A program made the translations under genes and the position numbers. Under the pieces are notes generated by a model that worked only from the letters and a program-made list of their open reading frames with translations, ran no database searches and was not told the DNA's origin. Source: an uncultured Gammaproteobacteria bacterium (GTDB lineage: Bacteria; Patescibacteriota; Microgenomatia; 2-02-FULL-39-11). From it: 64,000 bases of DNA. This document shows, piece by piece, positions 2,707-58,883 of this stretch. The DNA is taken from assembly GCA_964544585.1 (NCBI GenBank), contig CAZJBV010000002.1, positions 131,468-195,467 of the forward strand, read 5' to 3'. Numbering within the stretch: position 1 is the stretch's first letter; each line of letters begins with the position of its first letter.

Positions 2707-4112
2707 GATCTAGTCTCAAAAAAATTCATTTTGTCGGCATAAAAGGAGTGGGACAGACTGCCTTGGCTGTCTATATGAAACAAAAGGGTATCGACGTCTC
2801 GGGGTCTGATACTAACGAAATTTATCATACCGATGAAATACTTAAAAAATATACAATAAATGTAAAGGCTGGGTTTTCTCCGCATAATATCCCCCAAAAT
2901 ACAGATCTTATCATCACCACCGGCGCCCATGATTCATTTAACAATCCCGAAAGTTTGGCAGGTATACGACGCGGTATAAGAACTATTACCCACGGCCAAG
3001 CGCTCGGAGAAGAAATGAAGGGGAAAGTTGGAATTTCAGTGGCCGGCACCCATGGTAAAACCACCACCACCAGCATGATAGCCACAATCGCAAAATTTGC
3101 TAACCTAGATCCCTCATATGTCATAGGCACAGCAAGTATCCCCTCATTAGGTGCGGCAGGCCATTATGGTAGAGGAAATTTGTTTATAGCCGAGGCCGAT
3201 GAATACATTACCGCTCCCAATATCGACAAAACTCCCCGATTTTTATGGCAAAGTCCTCGCGTTGCCATCATTACCTCGATTGAATACGATCATCCTGATG
3301 CTTATCAAAATATAGAAGAAATTGAAGGAGCTTTTTTTAAATTTGCCACAAAAGTTTCTCGGAAAGGTCTTTTAATTCTAGGTATAGATGACTCAAATGT
3401 CTTAAATCTCAAAAAGCATCTCCCCAAAACTATTCCCACCACATCATATGGCTTTTCCGACAAAGCTGATTATAAAATCGTAGACTACAAAGTAAGCAAA
3501 AAGGGAATAAGCTTTGTTGTTATTAATAAAAATCTCAATCTAGGGGAGTTTAACCTCCAAGTCCCAGGCACCCACAATGCCCAAAATGCCACAGCCGCGG
3601 CAGTCTCGGCTTTGTTTTTTGGCCTCAAACTTGAAACTATAAAAAATGCTCTTGTTAAATTCTCCGGTTCCAAGCGTCGCTTTGAAAAAGTAGGGAATTT
3701 GGGCAATATTCTTTTATATGATGACTACGCCCATCACCCGTCTGAAATAGAGGCCACATTAAAAGCTTTTAAGGATATCTATCCTAATAAACGTATTATG
3801 ACTATTTTTCAGCCACATACTTATTCTCGCACCTACGCCCTATTTCCAGATTTTGTGGATTCTTTTTTAGAAATTCAAGGCAAGATCGTAGTCACAGATA
3901 TTTTTGCATCCAAAAGAGAAAAGAAAGACGACAAAATAAACGCCCAGAAGCTTGTAGACGAAACCCGCAAGAAGGGGAAAAGTAACATCTTCTATTTTAA
4001 AACGAGAGAAGAAATTTTGTTATTTTTAGAAAAAAATAAAGACAAAATTGACATAATTTTAACCATGGGTGCAGGAGATATTTATAAACTTCATGAATAT
4101 CTTAAAAAATAA
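2703..4112 (+). CDS. murC: UDP-N-acetylmuramate--L-alanine ligase
   Basis: N-terminal IHFVGIKGVGQTALAVYMKQKGIDVSGSD Rossmann region typical of MurC. P-loop GTHGKTTTTSM. Overlaps the neighbours by 4 nt. Confidence 0.8.
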   Translation: MRSSLKKIHFVGIKGVGQTALAVYMKQKGIDVSGSDTNEIYHTDEILKKYTINVKAGFSPHNIPQNTDLIITTGAHDSFNNPESLAGIRRGIRTITHGQALGEEMKGKVGISVAGTHGKTTTTSMIATIAKFANLDPSYVIGTASIPSLGAAGHYGRGNLFIAEADEYITAPNIDKTPRFLWQSPRVAIITSIEYDHPDAYQNIEEIEGAFFKFATKVSRKGLLILGIDDSNVLNLKKHLPKTIPTTSYGFSDKADYKIVDYKVSKKGISFVVINKNLNLGEFNLQVPGTHNAQNATAAAVSALFFGLKLETIKNALVKFSGSKRRFEKVGNLGNILLYDDYAHHPSEIEATLKAFKDIYPNKRIMTIFQPHTYSRTYALFPDFVDSFLEIQGKIVVTDIFASKREKKDDKINAQKLVDETRKKGKSNIFYFKTREEILLFLEKNKDKIDIILTMGAGDIYKLHEYLKK

Positions 4113-5055
4113 CTTCGGCCCAAAACTTAAAGAAAATATCTCCCTTTCCTCATATACAACTATACAGTTGGGAGGACGCGCTAAATACTTCATTGAGGTC
4201 GAGGGAGTTGCAGAACTTAAAGACACGCTTCTCAAATCTATTCGTTCTCAAATTCCTTATTTCATTCTTGGTGGTGGTACAAATACTCTTATAAAAGATG
4301 AAAGGTTTGCCGGTCTAGTCATCCGCAACAAAAGCGGCAATATAAAAATAGTTGGCTTTAGAGGATCATTTAGAGACAACAAGTCAAATATCAAAGATAT
4401 CTATCTTGAAGTAGATTCTGGCGTTTTAGTAAATAGGCTGGTTCGCTTTTGCCTGGAAGAGTCTTTTGCCGGGTTGGAAAATTTTTTCCACCAGCCAGGC
4501 ACCGTCGGAGGTGCCGTCTATATAAATGCCCATAATATTGGTCAAAATGACTATTTTGGTAGTCATATCTTTGAAGCGAAGTTGATTACCAAAGAAGGGA
4601 AAGAAAAAAAAGTAGATAGGTCATATTTTAAATTCGGCTATGATTCTTCAACCATTCAAAAAACAAAAGATATAGTCCTCAGCGTATCTTTAAAATTGCA
4701 AAAAGGAGAAAAAAATTCATTATGGCAAAAAGCTTCTTTAGTTGCGGAATATAGAAAAAGTTCCCAACCTCAAGGAGTCAGAAGTCTAGGCTGCACCTTT
4801 AGAAACATTACCAAAGAAGAGGCATTCCGCTTGCATACCCCATCTTATACTCAATCGAGTGGGTATCTAATCGAAAGTGCAGGCCTCAAAGGCTACCAAA
4901 TTGGAAAATCTCGTTTTTCAACTAAACATGCAAACTTTATCGAGCATCTAGGTGGAGGCCACGCTTCTGATGTGCTACAATTAATAGCTCTAGCAAAGGA
5001 AAAGATAAAATCAAAATTCGGTGTAGATTTAAAAGAAGAGATAGTTATCATCTAG
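4093..5055 (+). CDS. murB: UDP-N-acetylenolpyruvoylglucosamine reductase
   Basis: SYTTIQLGGRAKYF, the FAD-binding region and the MurB C-terminal domain are present. The ORF-track start is 4069, but the in-frame ATG at 4093 avoids overlap with murC. Confidence 0.75.
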   Translation: MNILKNNFGPKLKENISLSSYTTIQLGGRAKYFIEVEGVAELKDTLLKSIRSQIPYFILGGGTNTLIKDERFAGLVIRNKSGNIKIVGFRGSFRDNKSNIKDIYLEVDSGVLVNRLVRFCLEESFAGLENFFHQPGTVGGAVYINAHNIGQNDYFGSHIFEAKLITKEGKEKKVDRSYFKFGYDSSTIQKTKDIVLSVSLKLQKGEKNSLWQKASLVAEYRKSSQPQGVRSLGCTFRNITKEEAFRLHTPSYTQSSGYLIESAGLKGYQIGKSRFSTKHANFIEHLGGGHASDVLQLIALAKEKIKSKFGVDLKEEIVII

Positions 5056-9548: not shown

Positions 9549-10350
9549 CACCTTAGAGGTGTCCCAGATAGGACACCTTTGGTAAATATTACGATTCCAA
9601 AGTCAAATGTTTAATTGCAGCCAATCTTTTCTGGTAGTCTTTCTGATCTAAAGTAAATTCTTTGAAATCCTCAATGCTTTTAAAATACGATAAAATATCC
9701 TGCTTATGAACCAGGGGCTTACTTTCATTATTATCATTTAAAAACAGAGGCAGTGAAGAATACGGATAATTTAAGAGATCTTCTGTAGATTTAACAATAT
9801 ATGATGTATATGGATTTAGGTGAATGTATCGTGTAACGTGCATATATTGCTCATCGGATTCTATTAATACAGCCTTAAATTTTCCTTGAAATATTGGTCC
9901 ATACGTTTCATTTTTGACATTTAAGAAACGAGTATACCCATTTGAAATATTCCCGACAAATTTTGCTATACCATTATTCTTAATTTGTTGAAGAAGTAGA
10001 TGGAAATGACTAGGCATAAGACAGAAAGCATGGATTCTCACAATATAATCTTTTTTATTTAATAAATTTAAATATATACTTTCTCTTTGATCTCTACTTA
10101 ATTTTAGAAATCTAGAATAACGTAATGGGATGCTGGAAAACTGATAATAAAATAGTAGCTCAAGAAAACGACCATAACTTCTATTATTTATAAACACTTG
10201 CTGCCCATACGTACCCCGATTAAATACGTGATATATCTGATCCGTAATGAGAGGAATATTTCTTCCAGGCATAATATAAATATAGAGTTTATTTACCAAA
10301 GGTGTCAATAGAAATACACCTTAGAGGTGTATTAGCTAGGACACCTGGCT
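9549..10350 (-). mobile_element. IS200/IS605-like or REP-associated (RAYT-like) element: a Y1 HUH transposase gene between two subterminal hairpins
   Basis: Direct repeat caccttagaggtgt lies on both sides (9549-9562 and 10317-10330). Each repeat is followed by a hairpin: aggtgtcc-cagata-ggacacct at 9556-9577 and aggtgt-attagcta-ggacacct at 10325-10346. Transposase CDS 9589-10308 lies between. Confidence 0.6.
9589..10308 (-). CDS. Y1 (HUH) transposase, IS200-like / REP-associated tyrosine transposase-like
   Basis: YHVFNRGTYGQQ N-terminal motif and the HuH motif PSHFHLLL. Flanked by hairpins. Confidence 0.6.
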   Translation of the reverse strand: MTPLVNKLYIYIMPGRNIPLITDQIYHVFNRGTYGQQVFINNRSYGRFLELLFYYQFSSIPLRYSRFLKLSRDQRESIYLNLLNKKDYIVRIHAFCLMPSHFHLLLQQIKNNGIAKFVGNISNGYTRFLNVKNETYGPIFQGKFKAVLIESDEQYMHVTRYIHLNPYTSYIVKSTEDLLNYPYSSLPLFLNDNNESKPLVHKQDILSYFKSIEDFKEFTLDQKDYQKRLAAIKHLTLES

Positions 10351-19066: not shown

Positions 19067-19103
19067 ACACCTCGAAGGTGGCCGAATGGACTCCTTCGAG
19101 GTG
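19067..19103. repeat. Short-form GC-rich palindromic element between ftsW and murG
   Basis: acacctcgaagg-tggccgaatggact-ccttcgaggtg: an 11-bp perfect stem around the same tggccgaatggact loop that appears at 58541-58579. Confidence 0.7.
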
Positions 19104-19115
19104 AAAGAACCAATT

Positions 19116-20249
19116 ATGAATACACAAAAAATAATTATTACAGGCGGACATATTACTCCCGCCATATCTCTCATCGACATAATTGAAAAAATGAATAAAT
19201 TTGCCATCGTCTTTGTCGGTCGAAAGTATGCCCTGGAAAATGATGAAGAGACATCATTCGAATACAAAGAAGTTCATCAAAGAAACATACCTTTCTATAA
19301 TCTAAATGCCCCCAAACTCAAGAGAGAAAATCTTTTAACCTCCTTTCTTATTCCCATAAAACTTTTTACCGCAACCTTAAAAAGTATTGAAATTCTACTA
19401 AAAGAAAAACCAAGGGTAATTGTTTCCTTTGGCGGATACATAGCTCTACCTATTTGTCTCGCCGGGAAATTGTTGGGAATTCCAATCATAACCCATGAAC
19501 AAACAATGAGCATGGGCCTTGCCAATAAAATAATTGCTCGCACAGCTAATACAGTATGTATCTCATGGCCTGAAATGGATACATCCGGAATTCATACTAA
19601 GATAATCTACACTGGAAATCCCGTTCGCAAAGAATTCTTTGCCAAAACCCTGAGGATTCCAGAATTTTGGCCTGAAAAAGAAACTATACCCAAAATATTA
19701 ATAATGGGCGGAAGTCTAGGTTCTCATGCCATAAATGAAATCGTAGAAAAAAATCTAGAAACATTTCTTTCCTCTTACATTTTAATTCATATCTCCGGAA
19801 ACACGGCTCAATACCGAGATTTTGAAAGACTAACCATGGAAAAATCAAATCTCCCTCCAAGTCTTCACAATCGTTACCTCCTCTTCCCACATCTCTCGGC
19901 AGAAGAAGTCGCTTTTATCATGAAAAAAGCAGACATTCTTATCGGCAGGGCTGGGGCCAATACACTTTCAGAAATATTGATTTCAAAAATTACCGCTATT
20001 CTGATCCCTTTACCGAAGGGAGGAGGACAGGAACAAGAAATGCACGCCGATTATTTAACTTCCCTTGGAGTGGGTAAAAAGATTATCCAAAAGGGTTTAT
20101 CGGGGAATATTTTAACTGAATCAATCAAAAATGCTTTACAGGAAAAAGAAAAAATAAAGGCAGCGTTCTCAAAATTGGATCACACAAATAAATCAAAAGT
20201 CGCGGCTCTCAATCTTGTCAATGAAATAGAAAGTCTGGTGGTACAATAG
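19116..20249 (+). CDS. murG: Undecaprenyldiphospho-muramoylpentapeptide beta-N-acetylglucosaminyltransferase
   Basis: IIITGGHITPAIS N-terminus and GRAGANTLSEI C-terminal motif. The ORF-track start at 19086 lies inside the palindromic element, so the ATG at 19116 is preferred. Confidence 0.8.
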   Translation: MNTQKIIITGGHITPAISLIDIIEKMNKFAIVFVGRKYALENDEETSFEYKEVHQRNIPFYNLNAPKLKRENLLTSFLIPIKLFTATLKSIEILLKEKPRVIVSFGGYIALPICLAGKLLGIPIITHEQTMSMGLANKIIARTANTVCISWPEMDTSGIHTKIIYTGNPVRKEFFAKTLRIPEFWPEKETIPKILIMGGSLGSHAINEIVEKNLETFLSSYILIHISGNTAQYRDFERLTMEKSNLPPSLHNRYLLFPHLSAEEVAFIMKKADILIGRAGANTLSEILISKITAILIPLPKGGGQEQEMHADYLTSLGVGKKIIQKGLSGNILTESIKNALQEKEKIKAAFSKLDHTNKSKVAALNLVNEIESLVVQ

Positions 20250-29862: not shown

Positions 29863-29914
29863 CACCTCGGATGGTGGCAGTCCGCCATCTAGCGGACATG
29901 ACTCCTCCGAGGTG
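29863..29914. repeat. GC-rich palindromic element at the lepB 5' end
   Basis: cacctcggatggtgg ... ctcctccgaggtg arms (9-bp stem) with a nested ccgcc..gcgg palindrome in the loop. Confidence 0.65.
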
Positions 29915-30435: not shown

Positions 30436-30477
30436 GACACCTCCGAGGTGTGCGAATGCACTCCTCGGATGGTGGAG
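30436..30477. repeat. GC-rich palindromic element just past the stop of the convergent secreted-protein gene
   Basis: gacacctccgaggtg-tgcgaatgca-ctcctcggatggtgg. Same arms as the large elements, with a short loop. Confidence 0.7.
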
Positions 30478-30480
30478 GCT

Positions 30481-32724
30481 TTATATTCTTACCAAGGGAT
30501 TAACCGATGCTTTCTTTGGATTATAATTTACTATTAATTTTAATACTTTATTAACCTGCAGAGTAAATTTATATTCTTTCCAAGCTTCGCTTTTTCCTAA
30601 TTGATTATAACTAATTATATAATCTCCATCCTCACTAGGTGTAAATTCTAGACTGAATTTTCCAGATTTATCAGAATAATAGGTAATAATTCCTGAAGAA
30701 TCGGTCTCCAGCACCTCTCTTTTCAATGTTTTCAGAATAAATTTTCCAGGTTTGTTGCTAGTAATGCTAAATAGAGACTGAGTAGTTAGCTCGGGAAGTC
30801 TTTTTTCGTCAGCAACGGAAACTCCCTCAAGTCCCAAAAAATTTAAAATTTCTTGTATACTTTGAGTATTTTGTACCAACTGAATGTGATTGAGATTAAA
30901 AGTAAAACTGTTTGCGTCCTCTAGTTGGCTGCTCGATGTCAATACTGTTCCATCTCCTAAATCCGAATTTATTTTCTTTGTAGGTTTACCATCAACCCAA
31001 TTTCCCAACAGATTATCCATCGCGCTTGGCTTTTTTACCTCCAAATACTCTAAAGTTTTTTTCTCTATTCCAGAAATTGTCAAAACCGAAATATCATAAA
31101 AAGGCAATGAGAATTGATTATCTCGCAGCCAGGGATTTTCTCCTTCAATAAGATCGTCTTCCATTAATTGTCCATTCCACTTTATAAAATTAAATGTCGG
31201 CAGAATATCACGTATAGACGGTGATAGTGACTGTATCACCTGCCGCTTAGTTTCAAATGGATTTCCTAATCTAGTCCGGCAAAAATTAATTAGAGTATTT
31301 ACTGCTATCTTGTCGACTAAATTACTAGACCATATCTCACCATTTTCCCACAGAGGGTAGGCAAGTACCGTCCCCTGATGTGGAGTGCCCATCGTCACCA
31401 ACTTATCCACATTGTGATCTTCACCATTTTGCAGGATATAACTTCTGGCTACCAAACCACCCAAACTATGAGATACAATATCCACTTTTCCATTTGGTTG
31501 GATATTATCAATGAACTCCTTCAATTTTTGCCCGGCCGTCTCCATCGTCTGCCGCCAGTCGTATGCATAAACATAGAATTCCTCATTGAGTACCAATCCA
31601 GCATTTTGGCTCAAAGTTTGAATAATTCTATCGTAAATATCCGTATATGGAGCCATTATCCATGTATTACTTTGTGAAAGATTACAAGAAAGCAAGTCAT
31701 TTCTATTCCAACTCGCCCCCAGCCCGGGTATGAAAATGACTTTATTAGGTTTCGGCGTAGGTGTTGGCGGCAGTGGCGTAATCGGCACCCCCTCCGTCTC
31801 CTTCTCCGCATATCCGATTTGAAACTTTCCGGAAACACTGTTAAGCATACCAGTATACCAAGTTTTATCCATTCCACTCTCTCGCATTACAGTGTTACTA
31901 GCAACTCTATGATTATCAAAATCCTGATTTTGACCCTTATCAAGTACCGGATTCTCTGGATCACGGAACCAATTAATTCCATCATTAGACCAAGCGTGTC
32001 CAATTCCAGCTTCTCCCGTATACCACAATTCATAAATCCCACCATCGTAAATTGCCATAGGGCTTGTAGCTCCATTTTCCCATGAATAATTAGGATCATA
32101 AGCTAATACAGGATCTGCATTTTTATCCCAATTTATTCCATCAGTAGATGTTGCAAATCCAGTTTGCCAAATACTTCCCGAACCTCCTACAAACCACATA
32201 TAATAAGTATTCCCAAGCTTGATTACAGAGGGCGCACCAACTCCTTTATTATTCCAGTTAGCGTAAGGAACAATTACAGAGCTCGGATAAATATTCCAGC
32301 TAGTCCCATCCGACGATGTTGCATATTTTATTTCAAAACTCTGCCCATTATTAATTCGAATGTTATACCACATCTTGTACACCGAACCATCTTTTATCAC
32401 AGTTGGTTGTTCTGCATTGTTACCAAAAGAGAGTGGGTTATTAATATATTTTGTCCAAGTAATTCCATTAGATGATTCTGCATATCCTATGTACGAATTT
32501 GTCCAAGCAGAGGAATCTGTTCCTGTATACCATATTTTGTAAGTATCTCCATCTTTTATCACTGTTGGATCAGCGGCATGGTAGCTATCCCAACCAGAAG
32601 GAGAATTTGAAATTACTGGATTACTGCTCGATTTTGTCCAAGTTGCTAGGGTGTTTGAGGGAGTAAGTAAGGAAAAAGTCGAGATTAGTGCCAAGAAAAC
32701 TAAGGGCAAGATTAGTTTTCGCAT
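30481..32724 (-). CDS. Secreted two-part protein: N-terminal beta-propeller repeats (GH43/GH32/GH130-like) plus a C-terminal lipase-like alpha/beta hydrolase
   Basis: Signal peptide MRKLILPLVFLALISTFSLL. About six repeats of the form P(T/S)VIKDG-TYKMWYTG. Lipase nucleophile elbow VSHSLGGLVARSY. Confidence 0.5.
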   Translation of the reverse strand: MRKLILPLVFLALISTFSLLTPSNTLATWTKSSSNPVISNSPSGWDSYHAADPTVIKDGDTYKIWYTGTDSSAWTNSYIGYAESSNGITWTKYINNPLSFGNNAEQPTVIKDGSVYKMWYNIRINNGQSFEIKYATSSDGTSWNIYPSSVIVPYANWNNKGVGAPSVIKLGNTYYMWFVGGSGSIWQTGFATSTDGINWDKNADPVLAYDPNYSWENGATSPMAIYDGGIYELWYTGEAGIGHAWSNDGINWFRDPENPVLDKGQNQDFDNHRVASNTVMRESGMDKTWYTGMLNSVSGKFQIGYAEKETEGVPITPLPPTPTPKPNKVIFIPGLGASWNRNDLLSCNLSQSNTWIMAPYTDIYDRIIQTLSQNAGLVLNEEFYVYAYDWRQTMETAGQKLKEFIDNIQPNGKVDIVSHSLGGLVARSYILQNGEDHNVDKLVTMGTPHQGTVLAYPLWENGEIWSSNLVDKIAVNTLINFCRTRLGNPFETKRQVIQSLSPSIRDILPTFNFIKWNGQLMEDDLIEGENPWLRDNQFSLPFYDISVLTISGIEKKTLEYLEVKKPSAMDNLLGNWVDGKPTKKINSDLGDGTVLTSSSQLEDANSFTFNLNHIQLVQNTQSIQEILNFLGLEGVSVADEKRLPELTTQSLFSITSNKPGKFILKTLKREVLETDSSGIITYYSDKSGKFSLEFTPSEDGDYIISYNQLGKSEAWKEYKFTLQVNKVLKLIVNYNPKKASVNPLVRI

Positions 32725-32801: not shown

Positions 32802-33674
32802 ATGCCCGAATGCAATGTATGTAAATCTACAAATATCATTGAATGGAAGAAAATCGATAAATACAAACTCCTCAAATGTAACCAATGTTTAATAATACAA
32901 ACTTTTCCTCAACTATCAGAGTCTGAACTTGAATATATTAATAATAGGTTTTACGGCAGACAACCCTTTACAAGTGTTGCTTATAACACGTCTGCAGAAT
33001 TTTTTTTTAAAAGAGGAATAAAATTTTATGAAGAAATAAAACTATTAAAAATTAAAGGTAAAAAACTATTAGATATTGGTTCTGGCTACGGATATAATCA
33101 ACTAGTCGCAAGAAATAACGGTTTAATTACCATCGGAATAGATCTCTCAAAAAATGCCGTTGAATTTGCAAGAAATATTTTTAATTTGAATGTAATCCAG
33201 GAGTCTTTCTATGCGTACAATTTTAAGAATTCGAAATTTAGTATCATCACAATGTATGATTCATTGGAGCATGTACGAAATCCAAAAGAAACAATTAAGA
33301 AGGTTAATAAACTTTTATCTGACGATGGTTATCTTATACTTCAGACGCCTAATATTGACAGTATAATGTATCTTCTAACTAAATCGAAATGGGTATGGTT
33401 ACTACTACCTTTTCATTTTTATCATTTCACGTCTGCTTCTATATCAAAAATACTTTCTGAATCAGGGTTTAGGATTGTAAAAATATATACATCGGATGAT
33501 AGGCAGGAATTTATCAAAAATATCTTATGGATAATTAAAATTAGAGAAGATGGAAAACTTAGATTTTTTTATAAACCTCTCTATATTTTTTTACATTTAC
33601 CATATTTTCTAAATTGGATTTGGAATCTATTTAATAAAGGAGGGCTACTTCATATTTATGCCCAGAAGATCTAA
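32802..33674 (+). CDS. Class I SAM-dependent methyltransferase with an N-terminal zinc-ribbon
   Basis: CNVCKS...CNQC at the N-terminus and SAM motif I LLDIGSGYGYN. Confidence 0.65.
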   Translation: MPECNVCKSTNIIEWKKIDKYKLLKCNQCLIIQTFPQLSESELEYINNRFYGRQPFTSVAYNTSAEFFFKRGIKFYEEIKLLKIKGKKLLDIGSGYGYNQLVARNNGLITIGIDLSKNAVEFARNIFNLNVIQESFYAYNFKNSKFSIITMYDSLEHVRNPKETIKKVNKLLSDDGYLILQTPNIDSIMYLLTKSKWVWLLLPFHFYHFTSASISKILSESGFRIVKIYTSDDRQEFIKNILWIIKIREDGKLRFFYKPLYIFLHLPYFLNWIWNLFNKGGLLHIYAQKI

Positions 33675-34500
33675 GATTACCGCCATTATTCTTACCCTCA
33701 ACGAAGAAAAAAATATTGCAGACTGTTTGAAGTCGGTGAAGTGGGTTGATGAGATTGTGGTAGTAGACTCGGGCAGTACAGACAAAACCATCGAGATAGC
33801 AAAAGAATATACAGATAAAATTTATTATCACAAATTTGAAAGCGATTTTTCAAAACAGAGAAATTTTGCCATCACCAAAGCAAAAGGGGAGTGGATACTA
33901 TTCTTAGACGCCGACGAGACTTTGCCAAAAGGCTCGGAAGAGAAAATAAAAGAACTCATTGCCAATACACCTTCCAGGAGTCCCTGCCTGCCGGCAGGCA
34001 GGCATTCCGGCCATCTGGAAGGTGAAACGATCGAAGGCTTTTGGTTTCCTCGTCGAAACTACATCAATAAAGCTAGGTACTTAAAACATGGATTATTTTA
34101 TCCTGATTGGCAATTAAGATTGTTAAGATACACAAAAGGCTTGCAATTTATTGGTAGCATCCACGAGCAGCCGGATATTTCTCATGATAAAACACAAAAA
34201 GTGAAAGATGTAGAAATATTCCACAACTCCTCTCGGACAAAATATGATTCCTTTTTTTCATTTTACCGCCTTTTTCCATTTATTAAAGCCGACGGGCAAA
34301 AATTAGCATCTTCATCTACTTCAACTACCCAGATTTTCTTATCTTCTTTTTCTACTTTTTTTCTGGAACTCTGGTGGAATCTGGTAAGAAGACAAGGACA
34401 TAAAGATGGATGGCCTGGAATTAGAGGTACTTTAATTTGGGCCTTGTACAAGGAACTTTCCGTGATTTACGCCCTCGTATCTCGTATAATAAAGAGGTGA
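33658..34500 (+). CDS. Family 2 glycosyltransferase carrying a palindromic-element insertion
   Basis: ITAIILTLNEEKNI...VVVDSGSTDKT GT2 N-terminus and the DADE motif. Element at 33968-34024 encodes PSRSPCLPAGRHSGHLEGE in frame. Confidence 0.75.
   Translation: MPRRSKITAIILTLNEEKNIADCLKSVKWVDEIVVVDSGSTDKTIEIAKEYTDKIYYHKFESDFSKQRNFAITKAKGEWILFLDADETLPKGSEEKIKELIANTPSRSPCLPAGRHSGHLEGETIEGFWFPRRNYINKARYLKHGLFYPDWQLRLLRYTKGLQFIGSIHEQPDISHDKTQKVKDVEIFHNSSRTKYDSFFSFYRLFPFIKADGQKLASSSTSTTQIFLSSFSTFFLELWWNLVRRQGHKDGWPGIRGTLIWALYKELSVIYALVSRIIKR
33968..34024. repeat. GC-rich palindromic element (variant arms) inside the GT2 gene
   Basis: acaccttccagg-agtc-cctgcctgccggcaggcagg-cattccggccat-ctggaaggtg. 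10-bp outer stem plus the cctgccggcagg core. Confidence 0.7.
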
Positions 34501-35630: not shown

Positions 35631-36763
35631 CCCTGATTCGCGGACGCTACTTGAATGCATATGAAATGCAAACCTACGAAGAACTTGTGGCATTATATCA
35701 AATCACAGCATTTGGATCACTTACTGCTTTCCATAAAAACTTCATCTTCCCAGTAAAATTACTCCCAAGTCCCATCGATATCATCTCCCTGACTCACAAA
35801 ATAGGCATACCAGACAAATACATCCACGGAATTTTAAATAGATTATTGGTCGATGATCATTATCTTTTTGGCCTCATCGACCAACTCAAAGGATTTGATA
35901 TCGCTCATACTGCCGAAACATATTTTCACTTTACTCACCAATGCCTGAGTGCCAAGAAAAAAGGATATGTAAAAAAGGTAGTAGCCACAGTCTGGGAAAA
36001 TATTCCTTTTAATAACGAAGGCGTAAAAGGCAGAAAAGAGTTCAAATCTCAGGCACAAAAAGAAATAGACCACTTTATAGCCGTTTCCCTCAAAGCAAAG
36101 AAAGCTCTAGTCCAAGAAGGATGTGATGAGAAAAAAATTTCAGTAATACCAGTTGGAATTGACACACACCGCTTCCATCCCAGAAACAAAAATTCAAATA
36201 AAAAATTATGCATTTTATTCTCCGGCAGACTTGAAAGTGAAAAAGGGGTATTTGATGTAATTGATGCTATCGACCACCTTGCCAATCGATATCATTGGAT
36301 CCCAGATAGACTCGAGGCAATATTAGCTGGAAAAGGATCAGAGGAAAAACGTCTAAAAGACATGATTTTAAAAAGAAACATTTCCGACTTTTTTAACATT
36401 AGCCATTATCCTTATAGCCAAATGCCTTCTATATATCAGATAGCGGATATCTTTATCGCGCCAAGCCACAAAACTAAATATTGGCAGGAACAATTTGGGA
36501 TGGTATTTCTAGAGGCAATGGCATCGGGTCTACCTATAATTACTACAGATACAGGAAGTATCAAAGAGGTGACGGGAGATGCCGCAATTTATGTACCAGT
36601 TGGGAGGATAGAAGTGCTTTCTGATATACTTCAATCATTGCTCATAAATAGTCAAAAACGACTCGATTTAGGAAAAAAAGCAAGGGTAAGAGCATTGAAA
36701 TATTTTAATAGAAACTTAATCGCCGGTAAAATAGATAAACTTTATCAACAAGTAAATAAATGA
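35618..36763 (+). CDS. Family 1 (GT4-type) glycosyltransferase
   Basis: EQFGMVFLEAMASGLPIITTDTGS. Confidence 0.75.
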   Translation: MPKIALIRGRYLNAYEMQTYEELVALYQITAFGSLTAFHKNFIFPVKLLPSPIDIISLTHKIGIPDKYIHGILNRLLVDDHYLFGLIDQLKGFDIAHTAETYFHFTHQCLSAKKKGYVKKVVATVWENIPFNNEGVKGRKEFKSQAQKEIDHFIAVSLKAKKALVQEGCDEKKISVIPVGIDTHRFHPRNKNSNKKLCILFSGRLESEKGVFDVIDAIDHLANRYHWIPDRLEAILAGKGSEEKRLKDMILKRNISDFFNISHYPYSQMPSIYQIADIFIAPSHKTKYWQEQFGMVFLEAMASGLPIITTDTGSIKEVTGDAAIYVPVGRIEVLSDILQSLLINSQKRLDLGKKARVRALKYFNRNLIAGKIDKLYQQVNK

Positions 36764-37695
36764 ATAAAATATTTATTATCATACCCACTTATAACGGCTT
36801 GAAAGACACATTTGAATGTCTCAAAACAATTTCTAAACTAAATTATAATAACCAAGAAATAAAAACAGTTATTGTCGATAACGCCTCAACTGACAAAACT
36901 CCTGAATTCCTGGAGAAAGAAAAATCAAAATATAATCTCCGCAAAATCTTCAAAAACAATAAAAATCTCGGCTTTGCCAAAGCCTGCAATATAGGCATAA
37001 AGTATGCCTTAGAAAATAATGCAGACTACATCCTCCTCTTAAATAGCGACGTGGTAATAGATCAAAACTTCCTTCCATCTCTGATAGATTCTGATTTAGA
37101 CATCATCAGCCCCGTAGTACAATTTCCCCTCGATCCTGATGGAAAAGATTATCGCTACGATTATGGTGGATACGTCAATTGGTGGACAGGCCGCACATAT
37201 CACGACGACAGAAAAGTTTTTTCCAAAAGACATCGAGGCACCTCGGACGTAAAGACACCTCCGAGGTGGCCCGCCCGCCTGCCGGCAGGCAGGGAAGGGA
37301 CTCCTCGGACGGTGGAGGGAGCAGGAAAACCGGAATATATTCCCGTTGACTATATGTCCGGCTGCAGTTTACTCATCAAAGCAGAAGTTTTTAGAAAAAT
37401 CGGCCTTTTTGATGAAAAATTTTTTATGTATTTCGAAGACGTCGACTTCTGCGTCAGGGCCAAAAAGGCCGGTTTTAGAGTCGCGGTGGATCCGCAATCC
37501 CTCATATTCCACAAGCTCGGCGGATCGATCAAACGCTGGTCAACAAAGGCAATTTACTATAATATCTCCAGTAATGCCATTTTTATCCTCAAATACTGCG
37601 GCATAAAAACCCCAATTGCTCTGGGATATCTTTCACTTCTCACCGCCAAAATTATAATGGATAAGATTTTATATAAACTAGACGCTAGACGCTGA
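36760..37695 (+). CDS. Family 2 glycosyltransferase carrying a large palindromic-element insertion
   Basis: IIIPTYNGLKDTFECL...VIVDNASTD and the DxD motif. Element at 37238-37318 encodes [27 protein letters not shown] in frame. Confidence 0.75.
   Translation: MNKIFIIIPTYNGLKDTFECLKTISKLNYNNQEIKTVIVDNASTDKTPEFLEKEKSKYNLRKIFKNNKNLGFAKACNIGIKYALENNADYILLLNSDVVIDQNFLPSLIDSDLDIISPVVQFPLDPDGKDYRYDYGGYVNWWTGRTYHDDRKVFSKRHRGTSDVKTPPRWPARLPAGREGTPRTVEGAGKPEYIPVDYMSGCSLLIKAEVFRKIGLFDEKFFMYFEDVDFCVRAKKAGFRVAVDPQSLIFHKLGGSIKRWSTKAIYYNISSNAIFILKYCGIKTPIALGYLSLLTAKIIMDKILYKLDARR
37238..37318. repeat. GC-rich palindromic element, long form
   Basis: cacctcggacg-taaa-gacacctccgaggtgg-cccgcccg-cctgccggcagg-cagggaaggga-ctcctcggacggtgg. 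Confidence 0.85.
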
Positions 37696-42510: not shown

Positions 42511-42620
42511 TCTCTTTTCAAACACCCCCTTTGTCAAAAGGAATTTGAATTATATTTTTCCACAATATCATTACAGCCTCTATAAAAGCATATATTATCG
42601 GTATCTGCTACTATGTAAAT

Positions 42621-43133
42621 GTGAATAAGAAAAACAAAATGAGAAAAAGGAAAAATAAACCAATAGTATATGCCTTTATAGATAGCCAAAACCTAAATCT
42701 TGGAGTTAGATCGCAAGGGTGGGAATTGGACTTTCGACGTTTTCGAATTTATTTGCACGAAAAATACAATGTAAAAAATGCATATCTATGTATAGGATAT
42801 ATTCCTAACAATAAAAAGTTATATGATTTTCTAAAGGAAGCAAAATACATTTTGATTTATAAACCAGTCTTGGAGCCAAAACATGCCAAAGTGAAAGTAA
42901 AAGGGAATGTTGACGCCGAGTTAGTATTGCATGCAATGATTGAATTCCCAAAGTACAACAAAGCAATTATTGTTAGTGGAGACGGAGACTTTCATTGTCT
43001 TATTGAATATCTCCATGGAAAAAACAAATTAGCAAAGATAATTGTGCCAAATAAGAAATACTCCTCTCTTTTAAGGAAATTTAGCAATTATATAGTCAAT
43101 ATCGATTTGATGAAGAGCAAATTAAAACAATAA
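42621..43133 (+). CDS. NYN-domain (LabA/PIN-like) putative ribonuclease
   Basis: IVYAFIDSQNLNLG…and the IVSGDGDF motif. Confidence 0.6.
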   Translation: MNKKNKMRKRKNKPIVYAFIDSQNLNLGVRSQGWELDFRRFRIYLHEKYNVKNAYLCIGYIPNNKKLYDFLKEAKYILIYKPVLEPKHAKVKVKGNVDAELVLHAMIEFPKYNKAIIVSGDGDFHCLIEYLHGKNKLAKIIVPNKKYSSLLRKFSNYIVNIDLMKSKLKQ

Positions 43134-49644: not shown

Positions 49645-51009
49645 ATGAATCAAATCCTCATTCTTCTCGGCAAAATCATTTCTGCCCTCAGTAAAATTAC
49701 CAACCTTGGTAGTGGTAGCACCTGGCCGGGTGAAATAGCGTTAATAACAAATCCAAATATTTTGGCTCATTTTTTTAACAAAGTAAAAAAAGGAATCATT
49801 ATAATCGCCGGCACAAATGGTAAAACCACTACCGCAAAAATGGTTCAAGAAATGATAAGCTCACAGTATCCCATAGACACTATAGTTCACAACGATTCAG
49901 GTGCCAACCTCTTAAACGGCATAACTTCAGCCTTTATAAAAAAGGCCAAAATTATTACGAACAGTTATTTTGACTGGGCAGTCTTGGAAGTCGACGAAAA
50001 TACTCTTCCCATTTTACTTAAATATCACCTCAGCCATAAAGACACCTCGGATGGTGTGCGCATAAAGACACCTCCGAGGTGGCCCGCCCGCCTGCCGGCA
50101 GGCAGGGAAGGGACTCCTCGGATGGTGGAGAAACCAGCAAAGCCCAAAATTGTCATTGCCCTTTTAAATCTTTTTCGCGACCAGCTCGATAGATATGGAG
50201 AGGTAGATACCATTGTCTCAAAATGGTTGTCTGCCCTCAAAAATTATTTGGGAAAAGTCAATCTCATTACCAATGCCGATGATCCCACCATTGCCTACAT
50301 GGGTCTTTCTTGTCAAAAGAATGTCACTTTTTTTGGTATAGACAAGGCAAAAGGCATAAAAGAAATAGAGCATGCTACAGACTCCATCTTTTGCCCGCTA
50401 TGTGGACATAAATTAAGTTATGAGGCCGTCTATTATTCTCATATAGGTAGATGGGCTTGTCCATCATGCAACCTTAATCGTCCTAAAATCCAAACCGCAA
50501 GTATAAAAACCAAATTACCAGGTCTATACAATTTTTATAATACACAATGCGCCGTATTAATTGCTCAAACAATCGGAATAAAAGAATCTAATATAAAGTC
50601 AGCTCTCCAAAATTTTACCCCCGCCTTTGGCCGCCAAGAGGAATTCAGCATCAATGGTAAAAAAATTAAAATCTTCCTCTCCAAAAACCCAGTCGGCTTC
50701 AATGAATCTCTAAAAACTGTCATCGATCTCGGCGCCAGGCAAGTGCTTCTCGTTTTAAACGATAGGATACCCGACGGCCGCGACGTCTCCTGGATTTGGG
50801 ACGTAGACTTTGAAATAATTCCTGAAAACACCCAAATCATAGCTTCAGGAGAAAGATGCTATGACCTTGCCCTCCGCCTCAAATACGCAGGCAAAAAATT
50901 TGAAATAGAAAAAGACTTGAGAAAATCCATCCAGTCAGATTATATTTTGCCTACCTATTCGGCCATGCTCGAAGTTCGAAAAATTTTGACGGGCAAAAAA
51001 ATTCTTTAA
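49645..51009 (+). CDS. murT: Mur-ligase-like lipid II isoglutaminyl synthase subunit MurT, carrying a palindromic-element insertion
   Basis: Mur ligase P-loop IIAGTNGKTTTA, Cys4 ribbon CPLCGH…CPSCN, and a DUF1727-like C-terminus. Element at 50041-50129 encodes [31 protein letters not shown] in frame. Confidence 0.65.
   Translation: MNQILILLGKIISALSKITNLGSGSTWPGEIALITNPNILAHFFNKVKKGIIIIAGTNGKTTTAKMVQEMISSQYPIDTIVHNDSGANLLNGITSAFIKKAKIITNSYFDWAVLEVDENTLPILLKYHLSHKDTSDGVRIKTPPRWPARLPAGREGTPRMVEKPAKPKIVIALLNLFRDQLDRYGEVDTIVSKWLSALKNYLGKVNLITNADDPTIAYMGLSCQKNVTFFGIDKAKGIKEIEHATDSIFCPLCGHKLSYEAVYYSHIGRWACPSCNLNRPKIQTASIKTKLPGLYNFYNTQCAVLIAQTIGIKESNIKSALQNFTPAFGRQEEFSINGKKIKIFLSKNPVGFNESLKTVIDLGARQVLLVLNDRIPDGRDVSWIWDVDFEIIPENTQIIASGERCYDLALRLKYAGKKFEIEKDLRKSIQSDYILPTYSAMLEVRKILTGKKIL
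50041..50129. repeat. GC-rich palindromic element, long form
   Basis: gacacctcggatggtg-tgcgcataaa-gacacctccgaggtgg-cccgcccg-cctgccggcagg-cagggaaggga-ctcctcggatggtgg. Confidence 0.85.
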
Positions 51010-51026
51010 CTACCAAACTACAAACT

Positions 51027-51854
51027 ATGAACTACAAACTAACTATCGGCTGGCTCTATCCTGATTACATGTCGACCTATGGAGATCGTGGTAATATTAT
51101 TTGTCTGACCAAACGATGCCAATGGAGAAAAATTAATGTCGAAATTAAGAAAATAGAATTTGAAACACTCCCACAAGAAATCGATTCTTGCGATTTGATT
51201 ATCGGCGGCGGAGCCCAAGATAGGCAACAGGAATTGGTGGCAAAAGATCTTTTAAAGAAAAAAAATATTTTTAGAATATTATTTAATAGGGGAGTGCCAG
51301 GTCTTTTTGTCTGCGGCTCTCCCCAACTTCTTGGTCACTATTACATGACAGGGGATGGGAAAAAATTGGCAGGCCTAGGAATTTTCGACTATGTTACCAA
51401 GCATTTCGGACATGACAAACCCCGCTGCATCGGCAACACAGTCGCAAAAGTCATCGGCATAAACACCTCGGATGGAAAGACACCTCCGAGGTGGCCCGCC
51501 CGCCTGCCGGCGAGGCAGGAAGGGACTCCTCGGATGGTGGAAGGATCACAAACCATCGTCGGTTTTGAAAATCATGGTGGTAGAACATATTTAGGCTCCA
51601 GCGCAAATCCCTTTGCCAAAGTTTTAGCTGGCTATGGCAATAATGGGGAAGATGGATACGAAGGCGCAATCTACAAAAATGTCATCGCCTGCTACTACCA
51701 CGGCCCCTTTCTTCCCAAAAATCCCCATATTGCAGATTGGCTTCTTACCCGCGCACTTGAAGTCAAATACAAAAAAGTTATACAATTGGGACCTCTCGAT
51801 GATGGACTTGAATGGCAAGCGCATGATTTTATATTAAATAGGGTCAGACCTTAA
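51027..51854 (+). CDS. gatD: CobB/CobQ-type glutamine amidotransferase GatD (lipid II isoglutaminyl synthase glutaminase subunit), carrying a palindromic-element insertion
   Basis: LYPDYMSTYGDRGNI N-terminus characteristic of GatD. Catalytic Cys in FVCGSPQLLGHY. Sits directly downstream of murT. Element at 51463-51542 encodes [27 protein letters not shown]. Confidence 0.65.
   Translation: MNYKLTIGWLYPDYMSTYGDRGNIICLTKRCQWRKINVEIKKIEFETLPQEIDSCDLIIGGGAQDRQQELVAKDLLKKKNIFRILFNRGVPGLFVCGSPQLLGHYYMTGDGKKLAGLGIFDYVTKHFGHDKPRCIGNTVAKVIGINTSDGKTPPRWPARLPARQEGTPRMVEGSQTIVGFENHGGRTYLGSSANPFAKVLAGYGNNGEDGYEGAIYKNVIACYYHGPFLPKNPHIADWLLTRALEVKYKKVIQLGPLDDGLEWQAHDFILNRVRP
51463..51542. repeat. GC-rich palindromic element, long form (core variant cctgccggcgaggcagg)
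   Basis: aacacctcggatgg-aaa-gacacctccgaggtgg-cccgcccg-cctgccggcgaggcagg-aagggactcctcggatggtgg. Confidence 0.85.
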
Positions 51855-57357: not shown

Positions 57358-58883
57358 ACAATTACGAACCAATAATTGGTCTTGAAATTCACGTCGAACT
57401 AAAGACCAAATCAAAAATGTTCTGTGGTTGCAGGGCCGATTGGTTTGGTTTGCCCCCAAATTCCAATACTTGCCCTGTTTGTCTAGGTCTACCTGGTGCA
57501 CTTCCGGTTCCCAACAAAAAAGCAGTCGAATGGTGTATCATGCTCGGCCTTGCCCTAAATTGCCAAATCCCCGAAACATCTAAATTTAATCGAAAAAATT
57601 ATTTTTACCCCGATCTTCCCAAAGGTTATCAGATATCACAATACGATCAACCCCTTGCGATAAATGGATGGTTGGAAATAAATAAGCCACAAGACACCTC
57701 GGATGGTGGCGAAGCAACGACTTCGACTCCTCCGAAGGTGCGAAGGGACCGGAAAAGAATAGGCATCACCCGCGTCCACATGGAGGAAGATACAGGCAAA
57801 CTTCTCCATGCCAAAGTCGAGGGTTCAAACGTTTCCTTAGTCGATTTTAATAGAAGCGGCGTCCCTCTCGTCGAAATAGTTACAGAACCTGACATAAGAA
57901 GTAGTGAGGAAGCTCGAACTTTTCTTAAAAAACTCCACCAAATAATTCGCTACTTGGGTATTTCCGACGCCGATATGGAAAAAGGCTCCATGCGCCTCGA
58001 GCCAAATATCTCTCTCCGAAAAAGAACAGGCGACAAAGACACCTCGGACGGTGTCCGCCAGCCGGCGGACTCCTCCGAGGTAAAGACACCTCCGAGGTGG
58101 CCCGCCCGCCTGCCGGCAGGCAGGGAAGGGACTCCTCGGATGGTGGAGGAAGCATTACCAAACTATAAAGTCGAAGTCAAAAATATCAACTCATTTAATT
58201 TTGTTAAAAAAGCAATCGATTTTGAATTAGAGCGCCATACGGATATTTTAGAAAGGGGTGAGTTGCCTATACAAGAAACTCGCGGCTGGGACGAAAAAAA
58301 AGGCATAACATATTCTCAAAGATCAAAAGAAGAAGCCCACGACTACCGCTATTTTCCCGAACCAGATATTCCTCCAATGAGATGGGGAAAAGAGCAAATA
58401 TCAAAAATCAAAGATCAAAAACCCGAACTTCCCGATGCTAAAATAAAAAGATTTATCAAAGATTATAAGTTGTCAGAATACGACGCAACAATTTTGACAG
58501 ACGAAAAATCAACCGCTGACTATTTCGAAAAAGCCTTAAAGACACCTCGGGGGTGGCCGAATGGACTCCCCCGAGGTGGAGAGACCGGAATAAACCCCAA
58601 AACCATCGCCAATTGGATTATAAACAAACGGATTGATACATCAAGGATTTCGCCAGAAGAACTCATCAAATTGATAACAAGTAAAACACAAACTATTCAA
58701 ATAGATGAAAAAGAATTGGAATCAATCATCAAAAGAGTCCTCTCTCAAAACCCCAAAGCCGTCTCCGACTACAAAGCCGGAAAACAACAAGCTATAATGT
58801 TTCTAGTCGGCCAAGTAATGCGAGAAACCAAAGGAAAAACTGATGCGAAAAAGATAAAAACAAAGCTAAAAAATATGATATAA
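57354..58883 (+). CDS. gatB: Asp/Glu-tRNA(Asn/Gln) amidotransferase subunit B, interrupted in frame by three palindromic elements
   Basis: N-terminus [23 protein letters not shown] and the C-terminal YqeY/GatB tail. Insertions at 57693-57740, 58038-58148 and 58541-58579 are all in frame. Confidence 0.85.
57693..57740. repeat. GC-rich palindromic element (short arm-only form with a nested cgaag..cttcg hairpin)
   Basis: gacacctcggatggtgg-cgaagcaacgacttcg-actcctccgaaggtg. Confidence 0.7.
58038..58148. repeat. Composite GC-rich palindromic element: an arm-only unit followed by a full long-form unit
   Basis: gacacctcggacggtg-tccgccagccggcgga-ctcctccgaggt-aaa-gacacctccgaggtgg-cccgcccg-cctgccggcagg-cagggaaggga-ctcctcggatggtgg. 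Confidence 0.85.
58541..58579. repeat. Short-form GC-rich palindromic element; same loop as the 19067 copy but with a co-varied stem
   Basis: gacacctcggggg-tggccgaatggact-cccccgaggtgg. The stem cgaagg/ccttcg in the 19067 copy is cggggg/cccccg here. Confidence 0.75.

Follow-up and report, generated by a model that had tools for sequence, protein, structure and literature searches.

Two matched hairpins in the ftsW–murG gap and in gatB

The gap between ftsW and murG in the window (the whole stretch of DNA that was analysed, 64 kb in length) is occupied by a 36-nt hairpin, CACCTCGAAGG-TGGCCGAATGGACT-CCTTCGAGGTG, which begins 2 nt past the ftsW stop codon and ends 12 nt ahead of the murG ATG (19116). 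A 3′ tail, AAAGAACCAATT, extends from it to position 19115. A second 36-nt hairpin, CACCTCGGGGG-TGGCCGAATGGACT-CCCCCGAGGTG, lies within gatB at the position that we term GatB hot spot 3 (Table 1). The 18-mer GGTGGCCGAATGGACTCC is present in exactly two copies in the window, against 0.01 chance matches when up to three mismatches are allowed.

A preliminary description of this DNA had proposed that the two copies carry matched changes in their stems, and this is borne out: the sole differences between them are AA/TT in one and GG/CC in the other. Each copy is one pair-step away from the common family stem CGGA/TCCG, one through a G-C to A-T change and the other through A-T to G-C. The span given there for the first hairpin (19067–19103) holds the element but takes in one extra A, the true start being 19068. 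The central 14 nt, described as a loop, are identical in the two copies as claimed but are mostly stem rather than open loop: the helix continues through a T·T mismatch, a G-C pair, a G·A mismatch and two C-G pairs and is closed by a GAAT tetraloop. Folding energies, which had been suggested as a check, place both hairpins far above shuffled sequences in stability, as RNA (−23.1 kcal/mol at 19068 and −28.1 kcal/mol at 58543; z −5.5 and −4.0) and as single-stranded DNA (−15.8 and −17.6 kcal/mol; z −7.1 and −5.7).

Table 1 Coordinates of the hairpin elements, the candidate transposase gene and its flanks in the window
Feature	Coordinates	Strand	Context or basis
Gene flank: CACCTTAGAGGTG unit, hairpin AGGTGTCC/GGACACCT, inverted-repeat arm GACACCTTTGGTAAATA	9549..9588	.	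sequence inspection, ssDNA folding
RAYT-like Y1 (HUH) tyrosine transposase gene, 227 aa	9589..10272	-	motifs CLMPSHFHLLL, RYIHLNPY
Other gene flank: arm TATTTACCAAAGGTGTC, nested hairpin round CACCTTAGAGGTG unit	10290..10346	.	sequence inspection, ssDNA folding
Short-form hairpin, stem box CGAA/TTCG	19068..19103	+	ftsW–murG gap; covariance model 68.5 bits
Mid-form, distal module GTCCGCC..GGCGGAC	29863..29914	+	5′ end of signal-peptidase gene (-)
Short-form variant, loop TGTGCGAATGCACT	30438..30474	+	just past the stop of minus-strand gene 30481-32724
Long-form, inverted orientation, box TCCA/TGGA, one G·T pair	33968..34024	-	in-frame, glycosyltransferase ORF 33658-34500
Half-unit (37239-37249) upstream and 59-nt long form (37256-37314)	37239..37314	+	in-frame, glycosyltransferase ORF 36760-37695
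Half-unit (50043-50056) upstream and 59-nt long form (50069-50127)	50043..50127	+	in-frame in murT
Upstream half-unit and 59-nt long form (51481-51539)	51464..51539	+	in-frame in gatD
Mid-form, translated as 15 residues	57695..57740	+	gatB hot spot 1; same insert in four other species
Mid-form (58040-58081), then long form (58087-58145)	58040..58145	+	gatB hot spot 2
Short-form hairpin, stem box CGGG/CCCG	58543..58578	+	in-frame in gatB, translated as 12 residues; covariance model 66.2 bits

Elements across the window

With a covariance model based on the short form, 12 elements were recovered in the window. They include three short forms (19068, 30438 and 58543), four mid-length or inverted forms with other distal modules (29863, 33968, 57695 and 58040) and four 59-nt long forms (37256, 50069, 51481 and 58087). 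In the short-form variant at 30438, the distal stem is compensated (GTGC/GCAC) and the 3′ arm carries a T bulge. The variant at 33968 differs on both arms, as the preliminary description had stated; its pairing is not perfect, since the innermost pair is G·T and not G-C, and the arm quoted there as 'cctggaa' is one base off, the actual arms being CACCTTCCAGG and TCTGGAAGGTG.

In the long form, the loop of the short architecture contains a nested GC palindrome of 21 nt. Three of the four plus-strand long forms, each in a different gene, have the same sequence (37256, 50069 and 58087). A gatB gene from another genome (P0001/L097) holds the long form without the inner palindrome, which identifies the palindrome as a nested insertion. 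Several elements possess a third, upstream segment in an A-A′-A arrangement, the middle segment of which can pair either way. Eight of the 12 elements are in frame within genes, namely gatB (four elements at three insertion sites), murT, gatD and two genes for family-2 glycosyltransferases.

Curated Rfam covariance models reported only four tRNAs at gathering score in the window, and a scan of 57600–58700 with E-values up to 10 returned nothing relevant; with no match at either threshold, a known RNA family was ruled out. A tRNA-derived core was also considered, as Omnitrophota copies show GGTGGCCGA..GG and a T-loop-like string downstream, but ARAGORN predicted no tRNA there. Phage carriage as a vector was rejected on the absence of the exact 18-mer from IMG/VR, in which this one pattern was searched.

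Stem covariation in two collections of copies

The two hairpins belong to a large repeat family of ultra-small groundwater bacteria. A core-fixed scan, in which the stems were left free, located the exact 18-mer in 96 stretches of GTDB genomes. Twelve of these are without hairpin flanks, seemingly chance or conserved-gene matches (for example, in Nocardia), and were set aside. The resulting alignment holds 84 copies with a foot and alignable flanks (82 from the loci and the two of the window), two of which, both in locus L054, are truncated. A perfect 11-bp stem is formed by 51 of the 84, and at least 13 distinct perfect stems are linked to one another by single pair-steps. Variation is restricted to a 4-bp box, while the foot CACCT/AGGTG and the adjoining GG/CC are nearly invariant. 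All boxes are joined by single pair-steps around CGGA/CCGA, and both focal copies lie one step from this centre.

The covariation analysis that the preliminary description had called for gives paired bases in 92.9% of stem cells, compared with 83.7% after column shuffling, a level reached by none of 500 shuffles. Double-sided changes number 111, as opposed to 35 in the shuffled columns, and sliding the partner by one column lowers the pairing to 53–57%. Arm substitutions without a match on the partner arm, named there as the outcome that would speak against selection on the fold, do exist; they are confined to a minority (12 of 84 copies, one mismatch each) and show no excess of G·T.

A second collection was obtained from metagenomes with a loop-free pattern, CACCTCGRRGG-N(4-34)-CCYYCGAGGTG, which admits any purine or pyrimidine at the two flagged positions and returned at least 120 loci. 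Among the matches listed, 61 of 63 family-like copies have Watson–Crick pairs at both flagged positions (Fisher p 4e-16 and 7e-15), and these 63 copies carry 45 different loops. The identical loop of the window pair is thus not an invariant of the family, whereas the hairpin architecture is. Box mismatches are evenly divided between G·T and A·C, both in the 84 copies (5 versus 5) and among the metagenome matches listed (1 versus 1). An RNA-type wobble bias is therefore absent from both collections, which argues against a constraint acting on RNA only. Copying of the stem box from the flanking target sequence was considered separately and rejected, as the flanks bear no relation to the box. The covariation, said at the outset to be expected if the hairpin is the unit that is recognised or propagated, is supported by the two collections alike.

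Retained irregularities of the hairpin

Not all positions of the helix are paired canonically. When the loop was left unconstrained in the search, the T·T mismatch at the loop edge appeared in 87 of 155 distinct loops. The next-but-one position holds a purine·purine mismatch, which swaps between G·A and A·G in the distal stem, and the inner pairs vary from C-G to T-A or G-C with compensation. A 1-nt T bulge recurs on either arm. Since the canonical pairs covary while the T·T and purine·purine mismatches are kept, it is a specific hairpin shape that is conserved. We are highly confident that what is conserved and propagated as a unit is the hairpin. The E. coli RAYT requires a conserved mismatch bulge of its REP (PMC8266576), to which the mismatches kept here are parallel.

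Insertion sites and coding context

Comparison with close relatives reveals both filled and empty sites. A relative that is syntenic with the window at positions ~45–60 kb (L101), and which encodes the closest GatB over the aligned positions, contains no elements in 21 kb; its sites in murT, gatD and all three gatB positions are empty. In another (L230, GlmS 77% identical), ftsW and murG overlap by ATGA and the hairpin is absent. By comparison, the window carries ~52 extra bases between these genes, which correspond to the hairpin and its tail. The gatD site that is empty in L101 is filled in L098 by a short-form copy in another frame. At this site and at gatB site 2, different species hold different forms of the hairpin family in different frames, which points to repeated insertion at tolerant loops. 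The length of GatB in Microgenomates varies between 429 and 558 aa, with many unrelated repeat-derived peptides at the same three positions, and same-site copies also occur in orthologues of a PurL-like protein, a glycosyltransferase, CarA, a GT2 enzyme and TsaE. No direct target duplication was seen between filled and empty sites, the boundaries of which are blurred by divergence, and neither a cleavage site nor a target duplication was definable at the hairpin sites compared.

Roughly two thirds of the copies from the GTDB scan lie well within long ORFs (about 55–59 of the 84–88 scored). Every intragenic copy is stop-free and keeps the frame, even though a hairpin of 59 or 46 nt, for example, has by itself a length that is not divisible by three. 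Removal of the insert from the mRNA, or its bypass in translation, is disfavoured for the same reason. The intragenic copies are mostly in sense orientation (42:13 and 45:14 in two counts; binomial p about 1e-4), and frames 0, 1 and 2 are occupied in 24, 15 and 3 cases, respectively. In frame 2, a tail that starts with A yields a TGA stop (AGGTGA). In our reading, the intragenic sense bias reflects a filter for translatability. Between genes, copies are split evenly between the two orientations with respect to the local direction of the genes (12:11), which is only a proxy for replication direction in these orientation counts. Transposition of the IS200/IS605 type is strand-biased. A tie between orientation and replication was considered here but is not separable from transcription, host-gene and local majority directions being almost fully confounded; of the orientation counts, just the even split of the intergenic copies bears on this question.

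The element at gatB site 1 was found through GatB homology alone and is common to five species. Its codons are identical at 14/14, 14/14, 12/14 and 9/9 positions, compared with 38–51% in the rest of the gene (codons of identical residues). The only two differences occur in one of the species (L100), where they turn an A-T pair of the distal stem into G-C and so compensate each other. This conservation could stem from purifying selection acting on the hairpin, from recurrent conversion by other copies or from repeated insertion. It is not predicted for a purely selfish, decaying element and may reflect a constraint at the host or RNA level or ongoing conversion.

A candidate transposase gene and its flanks

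A Y1/HUH transposase gene, seen as one copy in the window, lies ~9 kb from the 19068 hairpin. Its product scores 29.6 bits against Pfam PF01797 (Y1_Tnp), which has a cut-off of 23. Among NCBIfam models, it fits REP_Tyr_transpos (REP-associated tyrosine transposase) best, with an E-value of 2.5e-13 and a score of 50 bits, below the equivalog cut-off of 80. The sole meaningful sequence match in the PDB is E. coli TnpA-REP (4er8), with which the HFH (HUH) and RYIHLNP (Tyr) motifs align, and a profile of 15 homologues also reaches ISDra2 TnpA. An AlphaFold (AF2) model of the 227-aa protein has a core pLDDT of 84–93, and Foldseek places 4er8_A, a complex of TnpA-REP with a REP hairpin, first and the ISDra2 and IS608 transposases next. 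The protein family is large: it has 4883 matches of ~225 aa, and Gottesmanbacteria and Shapirobacteria are named among the hosts.

A 17-nt inverted repeat closely encloses the gene, and hairpin-forming CACCTTAGAGGTG units lie beyond it on either side. The sequence CACCTNNNAGGTG occurs eight times in the window against an expectation of 0.02: two copies are at the transposase flanks, six are in hairpins and none is elsewhere. The hairpin foot, as CACCT-N3-AGGTG, is present on both transposase flanks at fixed distances at seven loci from three protein lineages. In four further genomes, homologues at unrelated loci have CACCT-CTA-AGGTG on both flanks with conserved spacing. A paralogue (L080, MAG JACREK01) is flanked by CACCTGAAAGGTG and CACCTTTCAGGTG, and a flank of a distant homologue with 31% identity (L116), CACCTCGGGGGTG-TA-CACCCCCGAGGTG, equals the stem of the gatB copy. 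The CTAA box of the flank is also found in dispersed short-form copies (CACCTCTAAGG..CCTTAGAGGTG). The MAGs JACREK01 and PFLE01 hold both a transposase gene and exact-core hairpins, so that the co-occurrence of gene and hairpin is seen in three genomes.

The likeness between flanks and dispersed hairpins is limited to the foot and the architecture, and the flank 13-mer with its own box is confined to the flanks within the window. RAYTs have been associated with repeats through abundant 16-mers that flank the gene (PMC5581495); no abundant 16-mer is common to the transposase flanks and the dispersed hairpins within the window. We also considered whether the box at the flanks of a genome's RAYT equals its dispersed box. 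It does not, either in the window (CTA flanks versus mostly CCGA/CGGA among dispersed copies) or in JACREK01 (CTA and GAA/TTC flanks versus GGAA/TCCA). A scan of the 4–8 kb loci of RAYT homologues with the full-hairpin covariance model returned nothing besides the flank units, an outcome that carries no weight either way.

Discussion

The elements are probably the repeats of a REP/REPIN-RAYT-type system in Microgenomates (Patescibacteria), in which recognition would act on folded single-stranded DNA; the window itself derives from a Gottesmanbacteria-like genome. The conserved unit comprises the fixed foot CACCT/AGGTG, a 4-bp box that needs only to pair, the GG/CC step, the retained T·T and purine·purine mismatches and an exchangeable distal mini-hairpin. 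In its folded single-stranded form, this unit would be recognised and copied by a RAYT-like Y1/HUH tyrosine transposase, presumably the one encoded at 9589–10272(−). If only copies that still fold are propagated, a change in one arm would persist only where the partner arm matches, and covariation would follow. Copies would land anywhere; within genes, the survivors would be those that are in frame, stop-free, mostly in sense and situated in tolerant surface loops, and such a survival filter would yield the in-frame copies in gatB, murT, gatD and the glycosyltransferase genes. We infer that the enzyme moves these hairpins and that DNA is their relevant form: the window has a RAYT-like gene, a wobble bias is lacking and close relatives do without the elements, all of which speaks for DNA rather than RNA. 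Counted against a RAYT-type reading are the likeness of the flanks in foot and architecture only, the missing GTAG/CGTC tag, the subthreshold NCBIfam score, a co-occurrence of gene and hairpins that is seen in just three genomes, the failure to define a cleavage site or target duplication, the conservation at gatB site 1 and the even orientation of the intergenic copies.

The hairpins might instead act as RNA, in mRNA stability, processing or translation, for instance through an anti-Shine-Dalgarno-like CACCTCC that pairs with a Shine-Dalgarno-like GGAGGTG, in which case the host would select the fold. The RNA folds are indeed stable, and the intragenic copies are mostly in sense, although both this bias and the avoidance of frame 2 are explicable by translatability, and the intergenic copies have no preferred orientation. 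The nucleotide-level conservation of gatB site 1 and the in-situ compensatory change in L100 would also suit an RNA role, as would the resemblance of AGGTG(G/A)A at the foot, and of GAGGTG-GCCGA-ATG, to a ribosome-binding site with a start codon; on the murG side, an ATG at 19086 is in frame. Such a role is nevertheless quite unlikely given the even G·T and A·C counts, the syntenic stretches of close relatives that lack elements at the same sites, the spread over many unrelated genes, three frames and both orientations, and the failure to match Rfam. A related proposal grants the elements a longer history. Hairpins in essential genes may be under nucleotide-level purifying selection across species, to which the gatB site-1 copy points, and would then be long-lived, vertically inherited REPIN-like replicators of genome-reduced bacteria with a role at the host or RNA level, in which the 4-bp box and the distal module serve as a combinatorial code for co-resident RAYT paralogues; we put this forward tentatively, as a conceivable if improbable extension. 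That the peptides are what is selected (HLxGGRMDSxxV or TPxxWPNGL, for example), with the DNA palindrome incidental, is strongly disfavoured and scarcely credible. Many copies are in frame in conserved enzymes and two frames dominate, but about a third of all copies are intergenic (19068 and 30438 among them), a given DNA sequence is translated in more than one frame and from either strand, and at one gatD and one gatB site the frame differs between species. Codons are also identical where synonymous change would be free, and the covariation tracks base pairing, not codons.

Two further accounts concern how the copies arise. Matched arm changes could be a mutational by-product, either of template switching at quasi-palindromes or of conversion between arms or copies. 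Quasi-palindrome correction is an established mutational mechanism, and the 51 perfect stems among 84, the unbiased mismatch spectrum and a pair of PurL-like orthologues (L008 and L012) that share a core but differ at three stem pairs, which looks like replacement and not stepwise change, would agree with it. A process that makes the arms symmetrical should, however, also wipe out the T·T and purine·purine mismatches, yet these are kept across many loops and stems; the foot and GG/CC remain invariant with only the 4-bp box variable, and the T bulge recurs on either arm. We regard this account as very doubtful. An unlikely alternative of another kind is that the hairpins are mobile but moved otherwise, by another enzyme or by slippage with fold-back copying, the flank units being landed copies or the gene's own IS ends. 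In its favour, the flank units differ from the dispersed copies, the transposase gene changes its locus from genome to genome as an autonomous IS would, and A-A′-A arrangements with shared boxes could come from inverted duplication. Units on both flanks at fixed distances, across seven loci and three protein lineages, are nevertheless unlike chance landings, and the motif is otherwise exclusive to hairpins within the window.

Relation to known systems

The family looks like a functional counterpart of REP/REPIN-RAYT systems that fails two defining features of the families described so far, the tag and the extragenic location. As in these 'REPtrons', the repeats are short, GC-rich imperfect palindromes in many copies (of about 20–40 nt in REPs and 36–59 nt here, with 12 hairpins and two gene flanks in 64 kb), occur in alternating orientations that form larger hairpins and are patchy among relatives. 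The Y1/HUH gene is bracketed by units related to the hairpins in foot and architecture, and its best family model and best solved structure are both RAYT. Compensatory changes, common in REPIN hairpins (PMC3116915), and a conserved in-stem mismatch (PMC8266576) are further shared traits. A REP is defined by a GTAG (or CGTC) tetranucleotide at the end of the palindrome (PMC3733652, PMC8266576). By contrast, neither GTAG nor CGTC was found at either end of the copies read, the ends of which are (A)AAGA-CACCT ... AGGTG-GAGGAATCA, with the constant foot CACCT/AGGTG in place of a tag. Unlike extragenic REPs, about two thirds of the copies are intragenic and in frame. The protein, of ~225 aa, is set apart from described RAYTs by a score below the NCBI equivalog cut-off and by the varying loci of its gene, and the units beside the gene are not the abundant dispersed sequence itself, as they are in REP-RAYT systems.

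The coding insertions recall Rickettsia palindromic elements (RPEs), which are likewise in-frame palindromes in unrelated housekeeping genes, apparently translated, at tolerated positions and also found between genes (PMC10969869, PMC3733652). RPEs are about 100–150 bp long, are grouped in Rickettsia-specific families and bear a CGTC tag, and no transposase dedicated to them is known (PMC3733652). By description, the present elements differ from them in length (36–59 nt), foot, host phylum (a Microgenomates host) and the presence of a candidate transposase. The gene arrangement resembles the TIRtrons with their TIRYT genes, which are RAYT-like and have long terminal inverted repeats (Di Nocera 2013, PMC3733652): a 17-nt inverted repeat is present, and the flanks are related to a dispersed family. 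Foot units on both flanks of the transposase gene recall the REPtron/TIRtron pattern (PMC3733652). The dispersed family is, when compared by description, far more abundant than the TIR families, termed 'moderately abundant' (PMC3733652).

The Y1/HUH transposase and its fold matches to ISDra2 and IS608 TnpA also connect the system to IS200/IS605 elements. Known members of that family recognise subterminal imperfect hairpins on one DNA strand. The present elements differ from them, and from their hairpin-ended miniature derivatives, in being single 36–59-nt hairpins without two distinct ends, and no target tetranucleotide or guide sequence of the IS200/IS605 kind was identified for them. MITEs measure 70–300 bp, with terminal inverted repeats of 15–30 bp and a target-site duplication. 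This class was ruled out, as the elements are shorter than 70 bp and the comparisons of filled and empty sites, with their blurred boundaries, gave no direct duplication. Fungal mitochondrial GC clusters and double-hairpin elements are GC-rich hairpins in AT-rich genomes that also occur within coding sequence and retain their pairing with the protein still functional. The coding palindromes of Nematomorpha mitochondria are similar in being GC-rich hairpins within the coding sequence of an AT-rich genome, with pairing kept and a functional protein (PMC6649704). These mitochondrial cases are organellar and are not known to have an associated Y1 transposase. In Nematomorpha, the palindromes are long and perfect, encode conserved protein regions and are not insertions.

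In the papers searched, we found no literature on RAYTs or such repeats in Patescibacteria/CPR, and such systems do not appear to have been described in this phylum. The invasion of essential genes in the manner of RPEs, best known from Rickettsia, also takes place on a large scale in Patescibacteria. The inserts lengthen conserved enzymes, as the range of GatB lengths illustrates, and create insertion hot spots; they affect gene calling, protein-length statistics and alignments of CPR proteins, and probably break metagenome assemblies. With structure-preserving covariation, non-canonical pairs that are kept and a candidate hairpin-recognising transposase, the family offers a clear case for the debate on REP-type repeats. 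A 36-nt hairpin and a 227-aa protein are small enough for a direct test of whether a Y1 enzyme reads shape or sequence.

In-frame inserts in GatB proteins

The inserts of GatB do not follow a tree-like pattern. The closest relative of the GatB encoded in the window is P0013, the protein of the syntenic locus L101, which matches it at 77% over aligned positions and carries none of the three inserts, and more distant GatB proteins (71-75%; P0001 and P0002 were compared) have the site-1 insert in common with that of the window. Such a distribution implies that inserts have been lost precisely or gained repeatedly, or that recombination has occurred. In the alignment of Microgenomates GatB proteins, the three insertion hot spots fall at about columns 125-185, 300-350 and 485-530. 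Peptides that recur at these hot spots in other Microgenomates (SPSAPRND, FARDD/ARDD, SERSESRNL, SWTSQDD and LRDPSxSVGMT) look like translated copies of other hairpin-repeat families, and in-frame repeat invasion thus seems to be general in this group.

Nested palindromes and the murG start

The loop of the long-form hairpins is filled by the GC palindrome GCCTGCCGGCAGGC, which appears to represent a second, nested family of palindromic insertions that has no CACCT foot. Copies outside the hairpins lie in-frame in two ORFs, of which the dnaE-like one continues past the window end. Another palindromic module, GTCCGCCAGC(N)GGCGGA, occurs by itself, and two mid-form hairpins have it as their distal module.

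Within window 19077-19118, the hairpin upstream of murG contains GAAGGTGG-CCGA-ATG. Because its ATG, at 19086, is in frame with murG, the gene could start 10 codons earlier, within the hairpin element. The same ATG is an internal Met in frame-0 intragenic copies.

Palindromes, RAYT-like genes and an inverted repeat: positions and context
Feature	Position	Context	Detail
GCCTGCCGGCAGGC, stand-alone	window 46452-46472	in-frame in PolX-like ORF	translation MPAGRQ
GCCTGCCGGCAGGC, two tandem copies	window 63606-63659	dnaE-like ORF	translation LPARPAGGPAGRQG
GTCCGCCAGC(N)GGCGGA, alone	window 46139-46170	LysM-protein gene (-), 5' part	
GTCCGCCAGC(N)GGCGGA, distal module	window loops 29875-29902 and 58053-58070	mid-form hairpins	
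RAYT-like gene	3849-4526	locus L222/L223	
RAYT-like gene	4001-4714	locus L224	
RAYT-like gene	4001-4675	locus L227	
RAYT-like gene	4001-4684	locus L228	
AT-rich inverted repeat	window 42579-42682		24-nt arms, 88% complementary, 56 nt apart

RAYT-like genes and hairpins in other genomes

At other loci, the RAYT-like gene is a lone insertion whose housekeeping neighbours differ per genome (tmk/dcd, TPR/PIN, prs/ahcY and cinA/rpsG), and it faces the opposite way from the gene downstream of it and, at most loci, from the gene upstream as well. For many homologues the contig is very short, suggesting that assemblies break at the flanks of the gene.

The exact core, the 18-mer common to the two short hairpins of the window, is also present in TPA MAG contigs labelled 'uncultured Gammaproteobacteria' (L002, L004, L013, L029 and others). 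Host proteins there, such as TsaE, CarA and a glycosyltransferase, appear similar to those of Shapirobacteria and other Patescibacteria contigs, as judged by eye on flanking sequence, and GC is 29-45%; the taxonomic labels look wrong. Intergenic exact-core hairpins are also present in MAGs that are classified in further phyla of ultra-small groundwater bacteria, namely Omnitrophota and others (L067, L084, L054, L046, L090) and Elusimicrobiota (L009, L031), and these could reflect either cross-phylum transfer or binning error. The Omnitrophota hairpins are embedded in a larger conserved repeat, GTGTGTAAATT..TTTAAACACC, and L084 has an additional nested palindrome compared with L067.

Other features of the window

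The AT-rich inverted repeat is unrelated to the hairpin family and overlaps the start of an NYN-domain gene (42621-43133). Across the whole window, GC skew is negative in nearly all 2-kb bins despite genes lying mostly on the + strand, and AT skew is positive for the most part, a strand composition that is unusual for co-oriented genes.
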